NCBI RefSeq assembly: GCF_003018115.1
Contig: NZ_CP027458.1
DNA from: Escherichia coli
Lineage (GTDB): Bacteria; Pseudomonadota; Gammaproteobacteria; Enterobacterales; Enterobacteriaceae
Direction: 5' to 3' (one strand)
Length of the DNA: 64,000 nucleotides
Numbering within the stretch: position 1 is the first letter of the stretch; each line of letters begins with the position of its first letter. Made by a program: the position numbers. Of the stretch, positions 20,601 through 29,600 are shown piece by piece.

Positions 20601-23600
20601 TTCCACTTCATCAAGTGCCTGTGCGGATTCACTGGCCCGCTTTCCGCTGTATCCGGTAAACCGCTCCGCCCGTGCTTCCTGACGTTCAGCGAGCGTGCTG
20701 TCTTCATCCTCAATCTCTCCGGCAAGTGAGAGGAGCACGTCTTCCCGGCCCGGTGTCCAGGCTGGCGCGACAAACAGCGCCTGTTTGGGTGCCCAGCGGA
20801 AACCGGCATCATGCACTTTTTTATACGTCTCCGGGTCAAGACGTGACGCGGCATACAGGCGCAGTTTGTTGTCATCCGGTGAGTAGGTCGCGCGGTACAT
20901 CTGCACAGGGCTGGCGGCTTCCGGGGCGGTCATGGTGATTGCTGATAATGTCATAAAATGTTCTCCTTCCGTCTGTTGCCGCCCCTCGCGGGGCGGCTCA
21001 CCTCATCAGTTAAAAGCGCGTTTCAGTTCGAGTGTGCGGAGCACCTGCCCGAAGGCCGTGTTTTTCATGGCGGGGATGTGTACACCACGCCCCCGGCGAA
21101 AACTCCGGGCTATGTGTCGCCCGAAGGCTTTCAGCACGGGGTCAATTTCCGGCGCGGGGATGTCTTCGCGTCTGAAACGGGTATGACGACGGGGCTTTAC
21201 AGCCGCTGCGGAAGGTGAAACAATGCTTACAGTCATAAATGGATTCCTTATGACAGGTTGGTAACAGTGCCTTAAAGACTGTTCGCGCAGTCTCTTCGGC
21301 GTGGATTAAGCAGGTCCCTGACCTGCTTTTTTCATATCTGTATCTGACGTTCTCCGGTGTTTTCCTCCTTCTGTTCCTGCGTTCTCATTACCTGCCAGCC
21401 GGATGGCTGACAGAACAAATAAATGCGTATTGCCGGAGTCTGAAATAAATCCTGATTTTTAAAGAACATCACCCGTTGAGTTTCGGGAGCCGCGGTTTTG
21501 ACGTTTCGCGGGAACCTGCTGCTGTATTCCCTGTGGTATGAACTTCACCCGTTTGAGAACCTTCGCCGCAAGGGGCATCACTGCCACGGCCTGACGCACC
21601 TGTCCTGGGCAGAACGCAAAATTTTTTACCGGGTTTTAGGTAAAAAATTTTGTGGGCTGTTCATTTACCCTGGACAGTCAGTGCGGCAGGTTGTGGCTGT
21701 CTATGCCCCGGCGACAGGGACTCATACGGGTGTGTGGCACCCGGCAGGCAATGAGCAGGGACCCGCTGCAACGACGTGAAGCGCGGTTTGCGAAACGGCG
21801 TTGCCCCTTACATCCCGGCTGCCTTTTGCCGGGATGCCGGGAGCGCAGGCCACGGCGCGACAGAGGCGGCGCGACCGGAACGGTCGCTGCAAGCCCGGGG
21901 GTTCGCGTCAGGGATGGAAGCCCGCCAGGGCGGAGACAGCTCCGCTGGCTCCGTTCACGACAGCCCGCCCCGCCAGGGGGACGCCCGGAAAAGGCATAAA
22001 CAGGAGAGGAATGGAAAGAGGAAGAAGAAGAACAGTAACCACAGAAACATAACATCAGGAAAAAACATTCCGGACACATCACAAACGGGAAGGGTAACGG
22101 GCGACGCGCCAGCGTGGCCCGCATCCCTTCCGGCAGGCGCCAGCCTGCCAGGGGTTTTCGCGCGGGCTGACAGGCGGCCTCCACCGCCTGCCCTGTATCA
22201 CCTGTGCCTGCTGCCCTGAAGGATGTAGTGACCACCGAGGAAAACCGCCTGCTGATTCGCCACAAAATCACAGATTTCATCAACAATCTGCGCAGTGGTG
22301 AGCGGTTTCTGCCCCATTTCACGACGCCGCGCATTAATCACGGCCCTGTAATTACGCAGAATTTCGCGGGTTTCCGTGCTGATATTCATTACCCGTTCTC
22401 CCCGTCCAGCGCCTGACGCATCAACCGCATAATCTCACGTTCTTCCCTGACAAATGCGTCACCGTCGCCCCCGTTCTCGCTCCCTACAGCATGGAGGCGA
22501 TAAATTTCACTACCAGCCATCACCATCACTTTTTCCAGCAGCACCGCAGGGACTGTTACAAGACGGTTTACGCGCTTTTCCTCCATCAGTTCACGAACAA
22601 CGTCGTGAACAATGCTGACATCAGCACCATGCTCAAAGGCATCGTCCAGCCGCTGCATGACGGTTTCCAGCTCATCGTCTGTCAGACTCCAGTCCTGGGC
22701 TATGTGACGCACATCCCCACGGGTCAGCACCACGGCAAAAACGCATTCACTGTCCGGCACGTCTGTATCCAGCACTTCGCGGATAATTTCTTTAACAGTA
22801 CAGTACATGTTCTCGTCTCCTTTACAGGGGCGGCATCGCCGCCCCGTCCGTTAATCAGTCCAGTGCTGCGTAAATCGCGTTGCATTCGGGGTGAAATTCG
22901 ATGTGGCTCCACAACTGCGCATCGCGCATCCGGTACAGGTGTGTCAGTCCCGCATCACCGCTGTCGTGGTACAGCCACAACTGTCGGTTAATCACAAGGG
23001 AAGTCAGAATGATACCTGCGGCATCAGCACTCACAGTGCGGTCAAACCAGTTTTCACCGTTGACCAGATGAAAACGGTCGCCATCCGGCATCATGTAACC
23101 GCCACCGTCCGGCAGGCGGATGAAATGCCAGAAGCCTCCCTGATATTCCGGCATCATTTTTTGCGCCAGCGCGTACACATACGCCTCGGCATACAGAAAA
23201 TCGTTGCCAAACAGGTAAGGCAGAAAAGACAGACGGTCGCACTCTTCAACGTTCAGAGTGACAGGTTTCGCATACTGCATGGGATTTCCTCCGTTGTTCA
23301 CATATTCCGCGACACCGGGCGGTGCCGTGCCTCCATCTTTGCCGGGCCTGCAGGGTTGCAAGGGCGCAAGGGAAGCCGCAGCCTGACGCACACGGCTGAC
23401 GGGAGTTGGAGGGTGAGACCGCGAAATCTGAGCGGGTGAACGACCGGAAAATCACGGCAGACGGGAAGGAGGGACCGGGTGACCGCAGCGGTTCACCTTA
23501 CCTTGCAACCCGCCCGCAGAAGCCCGGCTACGATGGAGGCACGGCACAGCCCGCACACGACGCTGAGGCCACATAACTGAAAACCCACAAGGCCATGCCC

Positions 23601-26600: not shown

Positions 26601-29600
26601 AGGAACACCGTTCAGAACACCACCGTTGAAGCCATTCACTTCAACATCCAGGCGGGTCGGCAGAACCGTCAGCAGGTCAAACGGCATGGTTTTTTCCGGC
26701 AGTACGTTGTCACACAGACGGTTCCACCACACCGATACATCCTCGTTACTCCAGAAGCCACACCAGTCACCTCTTTTTGCGGTGAAAAGTACGGTGATGG
26801 TATCCCTGACATCGTCCGGTAATCCTTCCCAGCGACGCTGTCCAGTACCGCTCTGCAGCCAGAGTTCATGCAGCATCAGGCAGTTTTGTTCATCCAGCAG
26901 TACACCGTTCTGCAGGTGTGTCAGCCAGCGGGTGAACGCGATATTCTCCGGCGATACAACGCCACGCCCGGCAGCCGTCAGTCCGGGGCATGGTTCAAAC
27001 CGCACATCTTCAGTGGTCTGCAGAAGTCCGGCACTTCCGGCCAGAAACAGCTGAATACCTTCATTTATGGCGCGGCGATAAAACGGTGTGACGGCACCAC
27101 TGGCCAGTCGTTTAATCTCAGCGATCTGTGCCGGTTCACCAGAAAAATGCATACGGTTACTGCACCAGTTTGGCATGGGAATTCTCCTCTCACATGCGGC
27201 CTCCATCAGGCCGTGCCGGCACGTTAACCGGGCTGCATACGAATGCAGGTGCGGCCCCGAAGCCGCAGCGCGTGGAGGAGGAACGACGAAACGTGACCGG
27301 GTGAGGAGGCCGGCGACAGCGACACACTTGCATCGGATGCAGCCCGGTTAACGTGCCGGCACGGCCTGGGTAACCAGGTATTTTGTCCACAGAACCGTGC
27401 ACAAAATGCTGTGGATAAGCTGGACACAGCACTCCACAGCAGGCATACAGCCACACCCTCAGAGAATTGATCGTTTTTTAGTCAGAACAATGACATTTGA
27501 CTGTGTGCGGATTCAGTTATTAGAATACTGTATATGCATACAGCAAAAAAGAGAAGGGAGATGAGAACATGATCCGCATTGAAATTCTTTTCGACCGCCA
27601 GAGCACAAAAAACCTCAAATCAGGCACACTTCAGGCGCTACAGAATGAAATCGAACAACGTCTGAAACCACACTACCCGGAAATCTGGCTGCGTATAGAC
27701 CAGGGCAGCGCCCCGTCTCTATCTGTCACAGGAGCCCGCAACGACAAGGATAAAGAACGTATCCTGTCTCTGCTGGAAGAAATCTGGCAGGACGACAGCT
27801 GGCTGCCTGCAGCATGAGTACCGTTTATCACCGTCCGGCTGACCCTTCAGGCGATGACAGTTACGTGCGACCGTTGTTTGCCGATCGTTGCCAGGCCGGT
27901 TTTCCTTCGCCTGCCACGGATTATGCTGAGCAGGAACTGGATCTGAACAGCTATTGCATCAGCAGACCTGCAGCCACCTTCTTTCTGCGCGCCAGCGGTG
28001 AATCGATGAACCAGGCTGGCGTGCAGAATGGTGATCTGCTGGTAGTGGACAGGGCCGAAAAACCACAACACGGGGACATCGTTATCGCTGAGATCGACGG
28101 TGAGTTCACCGTCAAACGACTGCGGTTGCGCCCACGCCCGGCACTGGAGCCGGTTTCAGACAGCCCGGAGTTCCGCACACTGTATCCGGAAAACATCTGT
28201 ATTTTTGGTGTTGTCACTCACGTGATACACAGGACGCGGGAGTTACGCTGATGTTTGCATTGGCTGATATCAACAGTTTCTACGCCTCATGTGAAAAAGT
28301 TTTCCGCCCGGACCTTCGCAACGAACCGGTCATCGTACTCAGCAATAACGATGGCTGTGTGATCGCGCGCAGCCCGGAGGCAAAAGCCCTTGGCATCAGA
28401 ATGGGGCAGCCCAGGTTTCAGGTGAGACAAATGCGCCTGGAGAAGAAAATACATGTATTTTCCAGCAATTATGCGCTGTACCACAGCATGAGCCAACGGG
28501 TTATGGCTGTTCTGGAGTCGCTTTCTCCCGCAGTTGAGCCCTACTCAATTGATGAAATGTTCATTGATTTGCGGGGGATAAATCATTGCATCTCTCCGGA
28601 GGTTTTTGGTCATCAGCTCAGGGAACTGGTAAAGAGCTGGACAGGACTCACCATGGGGGTGGGCATTGCGCCTACAAAAACGCTGGCTAAAAGTGCACAG
28701 TGGGCAACAAAGCAATGGCCACAGTTTTCCGGTGTGGTCGCGCTGACGGCAGAAAACCGTAATCGGATCTTGAAGCTACTGGGGCTGCAGCCAGTTGGTG
28801 AGGTCTGGGGAGTAGGACGCAGACTGACGGAAAAGCTGAATGCGCTGGGTATTAACACAGCACTGCAACTGGCGCAGGCTAACACGGCATTCATCCGGAA
28901 AAACTTCAGCATCATTCTTGAGCGTACGGTACGCGAACTCAACGGCGAGTCCTGCATATCCCTGGAAGAAGCACCACCGGCAAAACAGCAGATTGTCTGT
29001 AGTCGCAGTTTTGGTGAACGAATCACAGACAAAAATGCCATGCACCAGGCTGTTGTTCAGTATGCAGAGCGGGCCGCTGAGAAACTACGTGGGGAGCGTC
29101 AGTATTGTCGGCAGGTGACGACATTTGTACGGACATCCCCCTTTGCAGTAAAAGAACCCTGTTACAGCAATGCCGCTGTGGAAAAGCTTTCATTGCCACA
29201 CAGGACAGCCGGGACATTATTGCCGCCGCATGCAGAGCCTTAAACCATGTCTGGCGTGAAGGGTACCGCTATATGAAGGCAGGAGTCATGCTGGCTGATT
29301 TCACACCATCGGGTATAGCGCAGACGGGATTATTTGATGAAATCCAGCCCCGTAAAAACAGTGAAAAGTTAATGAAAACACTCGATGAACTGAACCTGTC
29401 GGGAAAAGGGAAAGTGTGGTTTGCGGGGCGAGGATCCGCCCCTGAATGGCAAATGAAACGGGAAATGCTATCGCCTTCGTATACAACACAATGGACTGAG
29501 ATCCCCATTGCTTCATTCTGATATATCAGAATAATTTTTTCATTTTAAGACGCACATCATTCATTGCCTCCTGCACCGAATCAGTAGCAGAAGGAGGCAT

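Follow-up and report, generated by a model that had tools for sequence, protein, structure and literature searches.

A leading-region block shared by F-type and I-type conjugative plasmids: two anti-restriction operons with hairpin promoters and six conserved passenger genes

Comparison with described leading regions

The anti-defence islands described by Samuel et al. 2024 (PMC11541004) lie beside oriT in T-strand orientation and contain anti-restriction genes, an orphan methylase and Frpo-type promoters, and anti-defence roles were proposed in general for the uncharacterised families found in them. In F and in the IncI1 plasmid pESBL, the klcA and M.EcoGIX operons are induced in transconjugants, and promoter classes 2 and 3 were defined separately from class 1 (PMC12672017). 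In that study pESBL served for zygotic induction and for transcription start sites, the 5′ RACE start sites of both operons are conserved in F, and ED-TA RNA-seq covered only pESBL and F. M.EcoGIX is an ssDNA-specific m6A methylase, with promiscuous SAY methylation on single strands only, and protects pESBL in a manner dependent on oriT orientation (PMC7736820). Type I restriction is blocked by ArdB of R64, to which the F protein YfgB is 93% identical, and loss of ssp2 from F cuts transfer into recipients with EcoKI 5-fold and into those with EcoGIII 36-fold; ssp2 is also a replication roadblock, resolved by UvrD, which delays complementary-strand synthesis, and its deletion leaves transfer between isogenic K-12 strains unaffected (10.64898/2026.01.09.698686).

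The DNA stretch analysed here (the window, 64,000 nt of E. coli contig NZ_CP027458.1) contains a block that is not new: it is the well-studied early-entry block common to F-type and I-type conjugative plasmids, comprising the two published anti-restriction operons with their ssDNA hairpin promoters and six conserved passenger genes. We are highly confident that it represents the portion of the conserved IncF/IncI leading region that lies distal to oriT, and this confidence applies jointly to the whole explanation, namely three units organised by ssDNA promoters, the published roles and the passengers. By alignment to F, oriT is located just left of window position 10000, and the block falls within approximately the first 30 ORFs from it, with klcA and the methylase present and all array genes co-oriented so that the transferred strand is the template. 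Together with the published induction of the F and pESBL operons, this upholds the leading-region context proposed in the initial annotation.

The corresponding part of the F leading region (approximately 2570-8001 in locus L006, bounded by the DUF1281 pseudogene and the 63-aa gene) has the same gene order and orientation, and is collinear with the window at 92.3% DNA identity over 5.4 kb, with proteins 86-98% and promoter regions 93-95% identical. In contrast, a 3.3-kb module between the block and ssb (class I SAM methyltransferase, DUF3560 and a third Frpo copy) is present in the window and absent from F. The leading region of pESBL/ColIb-P9 is 94.9% identical over 7.4 kb, through impCAB, and shares the same synteny, but differs in having an intact impB and an ardA gene that follows a second class 2 promoter. 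The island occurs, at 90% identity or more, in at least 5,000 PLSDB plasmids. We saw no difference from the islands of Samuel et al. 2024, in whose dataset this plasmid group is dominant: the window families seem to match, in their numbering, families 6, 7, 8, 9, 10, 11, 14 and 27, with median leading-region positions of 15-22 (PMC11541004, Supplementary Table 1), and all, or nearly all, of the six passenger ORFs are listed there as uncharacterised leading-region families.

Three proposed transcription units and their hairpins

The minus-strand array, all in one direction, spans the interval between Frpo copy C (21440-22007) and impC (27569) and includes the following features:

22198..22389, minus strand: 63-aa basic protein (pI 9.8), an ORF with dN/dS 0.06-0.07, last gene of the klcA operon
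22389..22808, minus strand: DUF1380 paralog (YcjA/YubJ/YcgC), 139 aa, acidic, net charge -15
22855..23280, minus strand: klcA/ardB anti-restriction gene (F name yfgB), 141 aa, Pfam Antirestrict PF03230
23281..23695, plus strand: putative class 2 ssDNA promoter region (F ssp2 homolog), 415 nt, arms 23316-23347 and 23522-23553
23669..23688, minus strand: terminator-like stem-loop and T-run directly 3′ of the 256-aa gene (consensus scan)
23696..24466, minus strand: YchA/YubG/NgrC protein, 256 aa, last gene of the methylase operon
24511..24945, minus strand: DUF1380 protein (YcgB/YubF), 144 aa, Pfam DUF1380 E=1.5e-50, phrog_9024
24959..25180, minus strand: YubE protein (PF27407; YfcA in IncI naming), 73 aa, precomputed Pfam YubE, phrog_4830
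25181..25864, minus strand: predicted M.EcoGIX-type N6-adenine DNA methyltransferase, 227 aa, DPPY at residues 27-30
25865..26249, plus strand: putative class 3 ssDNA promoter region 5′ of the methylase gene, 385 nt, arms 25924-25953 and 26119-26148
25941..26246, minus strand: 101-aa ORF (PGAP hypothetical protein) over the class 3 hairpin, dN/dS 0.67 vs F and 0.93 vs pESBL
26250..27176, minus strand: DUF1281/Api92-like protein (YubB/YccB/YfaB), 308 aa, putative separate transcription unit
27207..27368, plus strand: 36-nt inverted repeat upstream of DUF1281, 97% complementary, 90-nt spacer

All eight minus-strand genes begin with ATG preceded by a Shine-Dalgarno site (GGAG-type), are spaced within operons by -1 to 46 nt, and exhibit dN/dS values of 0.04-0.39 against F and pESBL; they are real genes under purifying selection. 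While the direction and coordinates of the array had been read correctly in the initial annotation, two structured gaps had been overlooked, and the array probably forms three transcription units, not one, split by intergenic regions of 415 and 385 nt. No sigma-70-like dsDNA promoter was found on the minus (coding) strand in a scan of 5.7 kb of the island.

The class 2 region is 93% identical to the yffB-yfgB intergenic region of F and 88% identical to the region upstream of pESBL ardA, and its transferred (+) strand folds as DNA into a long stem-loop with 32-nt arms (-105 kcal/mol, z=-4.7). Compensatory changes occur in 10 of the 63 pairs across six plasmid loci, both klcA- and ardA-upstream, and pairing is kept even in plasmids with a YchA only 24-26% identical, where the counterparts yield similar folds (z=-7.7 and -5.0). 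Candidate non-template elements, TTGCAA and TACGAT, lie on the 3′ arm and face a stretch with mismatches; in Frpo, too, the -10 is opposite mismatches. The candidate -35/-10 reads TTGCAA-N20-TACGAT in the window vs TTGCAT-N15-TAAGAT in F, with the -35 part differing from F on both arms; since the window has a spacing of 20 nt where F, pESBL and the divergent plasmids have 15 nt, the strength of the class 2 promoter in the window is uncertain. The class 3 region, directly 5′ of the methylase and homologous to the F/pESBL element, forms a T-strand hairpin with 30-nt arms (-107 kcal/mol, z=-7.0). Its identity to F is approximately 95% across the part that both share, and one base pair of a small stem shows a compensatory change, A:T to G:C. 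We assign 23281-23695 and 25865-26249 as class 2 and class 3 ssDNA promoters, respectively, with a function predicted from their published homologs. As in the class 1 Frpo/ssi elements, each is a long T-strand hairpin that precedes leading-region genes of the same orientation, its 3′ arm carries promoter-like hexamers, and the -10 region contains mismatches; neither hairpin, however, is similar in sequence to any of the window's three Frpo copies. The inverted repeat at 27207..27368 (fold z=-12.1), conserved in F and pESBL, where the arm nearer the gene is imperfect, is possibly a further T-strand hairpin element. Gene callers also place ORFs (80 aa) within the class 2 hairpin.

The count of unassigned ORFs had been given as at least seven, with six lengths listed, and those six are real. 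The seventh candidate, the 101-aa ORF, is probably spurious: its dN/dS is high, its identity to the pESBL copy is 61% at the amino acid level vs 98% for its neighbours, it sits within a hairpin, and it yielded no family matches, including in a PHROG search. An origin as chance or decaying frames without function would suit this ORF and the 80-aa frames in the class 2 hairpin, but is refuted for all six passengers by their dN/dS values (0.06-0.39); the six also begin with ATG behind an intact ribosome-binding site, keep their lengths in F and pESBL and are found in thousands of near-identical copies, making such an origin highly improbable as an account of them.

In the arrangement that we propose, the three units would be transcribed from the transferred (+) strand: DUF1281 alone; the methylase, YubE, the 144-aa DUF1380 protein and YchA from the class 3 hairpin promoter, up to a terminator; and KlcA/ArdB, the 139-aa DUF1380 protein and the 63-aa protein from the class 2 hairpin promoter. 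Upon entry into the recipient, the T-strand hairpins would rebuild promoter-like duplexes, as published for the near-identical F and pESBL loci, so that transcription of the methylase and klcA units would be confined to the single-stranded stage. The methylase would place m6A on the entering strand and KlcA/ArdB would block type I restriction, in line with the F and pESBL work, and the ssp2 homolog might additionally slow complementary-strand synthesis, as in F.

Anti-restriction genes and their neighbours

KlcA, present in the array as initially annotated, matches Antirestrict PF03230 (Pfam, E=2.4e-26) and the PDB structures of KlcA (2KMG, E=2e-18) and ArdB (2WJ9, E=2e-8), and is 98% identical to its F copy. 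It is predicted to be an ArdB/KlcA anti-restriction protein, with in vivo inhibition carried over from its relatives. The 139-aa protein encoded next to it (YcjA is its source name) matches Pfam DUF1380 (PF07128) with E=4.9e-4 and is under constraint (dN/dS 0.22-0.28). The 63-aa gene shares 1 nt of its start codon with the stop codon of the preceding gene; its product, found as an exact sequence on at least 1,000 public contigs, has no relative in Pfam, PHROG or PDB and may be family 6 (YffA/AreA) of Samuel et al.

The methylase matches NF010253 (485.9 bits) and Pfam N6_N4_Mtase, and is 98% identical to the pESBL-EA11 enzyme, M.EcoGIX, and 89% identical to that of F. Its SAM-binding FxGxG motif I reads FAGCGST (FAGSGST in pESBL), the catalytic DPPY is in place, and there is no nuclease among the neighbouring genes which could act as a cognate restriction enzyme. 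The enzyme initially described as an orphan DPPY methyltransferase is already known; we classify it by similarity as M.EcoGIX-type, and its ssDNA m6A activity is presumed from the published enzyme. The terminator-like site at 23669..23688 probably marks the end of its operon.

Four of the six supposedly unassigned ORFs can be placed in named families: two in DUF1380, one in DUF1281 with DUF1281_C, and one in YubE (PF27407). YubE (dN/dS 0.14-0.28) has no relative in PDB. The two DUF1380 proteins are indeed the paralogous pair that had been suspected (28% identity, BLASTP E=1e-10; both match PF07128). For the 144-aa member (dN/dS 0.26-0.39), an AF2 model is all-helical (pLDDT 74.7, pTM 0.45), and its structural matches are generic helical hairpins only. 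YchA, the F gene for which is probably yffB, is limited to Enterobacterales; its structure is modelled confidently, and the predicted fold has no relative among solved structures. The 308-aa protein combines an N-terminal DUF1281 domain (PF06924, E=1.7e-49) with a C-terminal ferredoxin-like domain (DUF1281_C, PF18406, E=8.9e-15); it is an acidic protein with a net charge of -22 and a high content of Trp and Cys. It aligns over residues 3-274 with the crystal structure of Api92 (PDB 2IJR, E=2.4e-51), which, unlike the plasmid protein, comes from a Yersinia chromosomal island and is a structural-genomics deposit without an assigned function. The gene evolves under constraint (dN/dS 0.16) and is a frameshifted pseudogene in F. 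It is located 5′ of the class 3 promoter and, going by the published text, does not belong to the operons reported as induced.

Possible roles of the six passengers

The passengers had been put forward as candidates for undescribed anti-restriction, anti-CRISPR or anti-SOS functions. The context makes an anti-defence role plausible, but the hypothesis is already published (PMC11541004), and none of our computations assigns an ORF to any of the three functions. Profile-HMM and structure comparison, suggested in the initial annotation, placed four of the six in the families named above and yielded neither a DNA-mimic nor a known-inhibitor fold. Our tentative preference, held with somewhat less than even confidence, is that the six are non-enzymatic, protein-binding establishment factors produced in the same burst, with at least one extending the anti-restriction or anti-defence role of its operon.

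It is possible, if doubtful, that each of the six is instead an independent, undescribed inhibitor of host defence (restriction-modification, CRISPR-Cas, SOS, BREX or similar). Consistent with this are the location in a leading region, the T-strand orientation, the operons shared with two proven anti-restriction genes (PMC12672017), the enrichment of the passenger families in leading regions, the acidity of the 139-aa DUF1380 protein (-15) and DUF1281 (-22), which with a pI of 4.5 are similar to KlcA, and the invariable location of divergent YchA homologs beside ArdA or KlcA. However, none of the six shows sequence similarity to known anti-defence proteins or resembles a known inhibitor, YchA has no fold similarity to such proteins, and the Foldseek comparison of Samuel et al. 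gave no match between these families and their anti-CRISPR and anti-restriction structures. PADLOC and NCBIfam matched none of the six, and PHROG matches were not informative. A DNA-mimic identity of the ArdA/Ocr type was rejected, as no passenger paired a strongly acidic surface with an ArdA/Ocr-like fold. Moreover, F transfers well despite its frameshifted DUF1281, and the leading-region gene HerB/YfjB proved to reprogram transcription in the host instead of countering defence (PMC13370423), which weakens inference from position alone.

The same reprogramming of the host by neighbouring yfjB (PMC13370423) favours a role in establishment outside defence, such as ssDNA handling, priming or timing of the complementary strand, recruitment of Pol I or UvrD, or host reprogramming, as do the reported association of M.EcoGIX activity with DNA polymerase I (PMC7736820), the resolution of the ssp2 roadblock by UvrD (10.64898/2026.01.09.698686), and strong purifying selection on passengers that have no inhibitor-like fold. 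Yet DNA-binding, nuclease, helicase or primase signatures are found in none of the six, and the harmless deletion of ssp2 between isogenic K-12 strains (10.64898/2026.01.09.698686) indicates that genes of the klcA operon are not generally required for establishment; we consider an exclusively non-defence role rather unlikely.

Tight spacing within operons (0 to 46 nt, plus the 1-nt start/stop overlap), the presence of one DUF1380 paralog in each, and leading-region families of similar size (3,100-4,050) would fit a scheme in which YubE, the 144-aa DUF1380 protein and YchA are accessory subunits or regulators of the methylase, and the 139-aa DUF1380 protein and the 63-aa protein serve KlcA likewise, none of them being an effector in its own right. 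This scheme is improbable: M.EcoGIX was active when cloned alone (PMC7736820), and divergent plasmids have YchA homologs without methylase, YubE or canonical DUF1380 nearby. In addition, adjacent genes differ sharply in dS against pESBL (0.93 for yubE vs 0.06 for the methylase), indicating that they recombine independently, and the yubE value, together with an identity of only 77% between the pESBL and window copies, points to mosaic recombination.

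Gene content of the array

The minus-strand, one-directional array described in the initial annotation was recovered as such: eight genes, all in minus orientation, lie between the third copy of the ssDNA promoter Frpo and impC.

Features of the array and its right flank, with the corresponding families of Samuel et al. 2024 (mapping of families to ORFs made in the present analysis)
21440-22007: third Frpo repeat (copy C), left border of the eight-gene array
22198-22389, minus: 63-aa protein; probable family 6 (YffA/AreA)
22389-22808, minus: second DUF1380 protein, 139 aa; family 14 (YcjA/YubJ)
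22855-23280, minus: klcA, 141 aa; family 9 (klcA)
23696-24466, minus: 256-aa protein (YchA); family 10 (YchA/YubG)
24511-24945, minus: DUF1380 protein, 144 aa; family 7 (DUF1380, YcgB/YubF)
24959-25180, minus: YubE, 73 aa; family 11 (YfcA)
25181-25864, minus: N6-adenine methyltransferase, 227 aa; family 8 (methylase)
25941-26246, minus: 101-aa "hypothetical protein" of PGAP, wholly within the class 3 hairpin upstream of the methylase
26250-27176, minus: DUF1281 protein, 308 aa; family 27 (DUF1281, YubB)
27207-27242 and 27333-27368: arms of a 36-nt inverted repeat upstream of DUF1281 (97% complementary, 90-nt spacer, fold z=-12)
27410-27418: perfect DnaA box (TGTGGATAA), DUF1281-impC region
27528-27543: LexA box, DUF1281-impC region
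27569: impC, SOS-regulated, right border of the array

All eight genes have an ATG start and an upstream ribosome-binding site of the GGAG type, and they are real genes, as their dN/dS values, calculated by the Nei-Gojobori method against the copies in the F plasmid and the IncI1 plasmid pESBL, range from 0.04 to 0.39. The proposed paralogous pair of 139 and 144 aa was upheld (28% identity, E=1e-10), with both members matching Pfam DUF1380. While the earlier view of the array was sound in substance, it miscounted the ORFs and missed the promoter architecture: the unassigned ORFs, given as "at least seven", number six, an additional 101-aa ORF annotated by PGAP is probably not a gene, and four of the six carry family names (DUF1380 twice, DUF1281 together with DUF1281_C, and YubE). 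The 101-aa ORF, also annotated by PGAP in F and pESBL, has dN/dS values of 0.67 and 0.93, and is 61% identical to its pESBL copy, as opposed to 98% for its neighbors; we regard it as a probable annotation artefact, copied into thousands of records. In some public gene calls, YubE and DUF1380 are fused into proteins of 217-222 aa (24945-25030; P0001, P0003, P0010), and in PGAP annotations DUF1380 often measures 172 aa and overlaps yubE; the 144-aa form, which has its own ribosome-binding site, looks like the correct version.

When all ORFs were scanned against NCBIfam, PHROGs and PADLOC, informative names were obtained only for the methylase and klcA. The methylase shares 98% identity with M.EcoGIX of pESBL, an enzyme shown to deposit m6A on single strands in the SAY context, and to protect the plasmid against restriction on entry in a manner dependent on oriT orientation (PMC7736820). 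Its SAM-binding motif I (residues 171-177) reads FAGCGST in the window and FAGSGST in F and pESBL, a Ser-to-Cys change. The klcA product matches Pfam Antirestrict as well as solved structures of KlcA and ArdB. It shares 98% identity with the F copy, named yfgB in the F literature, the product of which was reported to be 93% identical to the R64 anti-restriction protein ArdB (10.64898/2026.01.09.698686).

Transcription units and hairpins

The array is composed of three units rather than one: gaps within units span -1 to 46 nt, and two gaps are larger, at 385 nt and 415 nt. By alignment to F, oriT is located just to the left of window position 10000, and therefore the plus strand is the one transferred and serves as the template for all eight genes. 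Inverted repeats of 30-32 nt are present in each of the two large gaps, and the plus strands of both gaps fold into long hairpins, with z=-7.0 upstream of the methylase (class 3) and z=-4.7 upstream of klcA (class 2) relative to shuffled controls. Their identity to the equivalent intergenic regions of F is about 95% (class 3) and 93% (class 2), and the klcA-upstream element is 88% identical to the ardA-upstream region of pESBL. In pESBL, ssDNA promoter activity of these elements was demonstrated by donor-elimination RNA-seq and 5′ RACE by Wen et al., in whose classification the klcA and ardA elements are class 2 and that of M.EcoGIX is class 3; both operons were reported to be induced in F transconjugants (PMC12672017). 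The F klcA promoter corresponds to ssp2 of Fraikin et al., which stalls complementary-strand synthesis until resolved by UvrD; its deletion reduced transfer 5-fold into EcoKI and 36-fold into EcoGIII recipients and caused strong transfer loss into natural isolates, but had no effect between isogenic K-12 strains (10.64898/2026.01.09.698686).

This ssDNA-promoter picture is in line with several features of the region. Throughout the whole 5.7 kb there is only one sigma-70-like dsDNA site, located upstream of impC together with the LexA box; a terminator-like stem directly follows the 256-aa gene; and pairing in the class 2 hairpin is maintained by 10 compensatory changes across six loci, which include plasmids with neighboring proteins only about 25% identical. 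A reservation concerns the candidate -35/-10 spacing on the 3′ arm of this hairpin, which is 20 nt in the window, versus 15 nt in F, in pESBL and at the distant loci. Rfam searches yielded no credible family in the island, and the miRNA and sRNA matches on the hairpins were discarded as artefacts.

A search of the 36-nt repeat upstream of DUF1281 for a promoter revealed no convincing -35/-10 pair. The window copy of the repeat looks homogenized, since its gene-proximal arm is imperfect in F and pESBL. The DnaA box between DUF1281 and impC lies within a small hairpin on the transferred strand, an arrangement which we take to be reminiscent of DnaA-dependent priming sites.

The six passenger proteins and the YchA neighborhood

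No function for the six passenger proteins, i.e. the products of the island ORFs without an assigned role, was given by any of the family libraries or PDB searches. The DUF1281 protein has a structural relative in Api92 (PDB 2IJR, a structural-genomics crystal structure; E=2e-51), and PDB sequence and profile searches with YchA, DUF1380, YubE and the 63-aa protein returned nothing meaningful. The DUF1380 model is poor (pLDDT 74.7, pTM 0.45) and all-helical, matching only generic helical hairpins. The fold of YchA is predicted with confidence and has no relative among solved structures. The 139-aa DUF1380 protein and DUF1281 are acidic (net charge -15 and -22, respectively); YchA is not. A tblastn search with YchA against 50,697 phage records produced no match, so that the PHROG memberships probably represent prophage or plasmid contamination rather than true phages. 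Literature searches under the gene names used for F, IncI and the yub series turned up no study on the function of any of the six ORFs.

The island families are among the 30 largest leading-region-enriched families in Supplementary Table 1 of Samuel et al. 2024, in T-strand orientation and with median ORF positions 15-22 from oriT; assignment of the 63-aa ORF to family 6 is a guess from size and position. In that study, Foldseek comparison with anti-CRISPR and anti-restriction structures gave nothing for the island families, and such leading-region families were generally hypothesized to be anti-defence genes. The anti-defence interpretation in the initial annotation therefore restates a published hypothesis, and is reasonable but unproven. 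The neighboring leading-region gene yfjB was shown in a 2026 preprint to be a host-transcription reprogrammer (PMC13370423), and position alone is therefore no proof of an anti-defence role.

YchA homologs with 24-26% identity occur in other plasmid backbones, where each is preceded by a 156-aa protein (the two genes together at L009, 3608-5168; L011, 6220-7783; L012, 5894-7457). A class-2-like hairpin comes directly after the YchA homolog, and then ArdA or KlcA; neither the methylase nor YubE is present nearby. Residues 84-133 of the 156-aa protein align with the DUF1380 N-terminus in profile-profile comparison (probability 70%, E=4e-5, 50 columns), and hhalign with a single sequence yields 4% probability, so that the similarity to DUF1380 is weak and suggestive only. 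A DUF1380-like protein and YchA may thus form a conserved pair that is associated with anti-restriction genes; this link is weak, and adjacency to the promoter alone could explain it. We consider it possible, if rather doubtful, that YchA and a small DUF1380-type protein constitute a conserved two-gene module, with YchA as an undescribed anti-defence or ssDNA-establishment factor acting with the anti-restriction genes in the first minutes after entry. The distant YchA neighborhood is a modest new observation.

The locus, its promoters, its expression timing, two of its products and the anti-defence hypothesis are already published, and the present finding is a pointer, not a discovery. Resistance and virulence plasmids of the IncF and IncI groups carry the block in their thousands, and its expression probably falls within the first minutes after a new cell is entered. 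Two of its products are of types with proven anti-restriction function, and the promoters are under current study. Among plasmid genes lacking a known function, the six passenger genes rank with the commonest, and a role assigned to any of them would be relevant to how plasmid spread is understood and blocked.

Distribution and rearrangements

The 5.4-kb region is at least 90% identical to at least 5,000 PLSDB plasmids, mostly conjugative plasmids of Escherichia, Klebsiella, Salmonella and Shigella, the closest among the matches listed being an IncFIA/FIB/FIC plasmid (99.9%). Both F and pESBL-EA11 are collinear with the window region, at 92.3% and 94.9% identity, respectively, and with unchanged gene order. 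In F (L006, about 2860-3781) the DUF1281 gene is frameshifted, and is therefore dispensable for F transfer in the laboratory. F also lacks a 3.3-kb window module (18780-21476) comprising a class I SAM methyltransferase (187 aa), DUF3560 (453 aa) and a 76-aa ORF, with an extra Frpo copy at its border, which suggests that the module was gained by recombination at Frpo repeats. Between the 76-aa ORF and Frpo copy C, a sequence (21231-21331, plus strand) matches the Rfam family AS-pc01 just below threshold (74.4 bits; gathering score 79); AS-pc01 is an antisense RNA known from the IncF plasmid pHK01.

In comparison with pESBL (L008), dS is 0.93 for yubE and 0.06 for the abutting methylase (24959-25864), and this sharp change indicates a recombination breakpoint at the boundary between the two genes. 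Finally, impB (28251-29521, plus strand), encoding a UmuC homolog, is split, with pESBL ImpB residues 1-324 and 297-423 aligning in different frames and the two alignments overlapping by about 28 residues; given the split reading frame, the window copy is probably a pseudogene.
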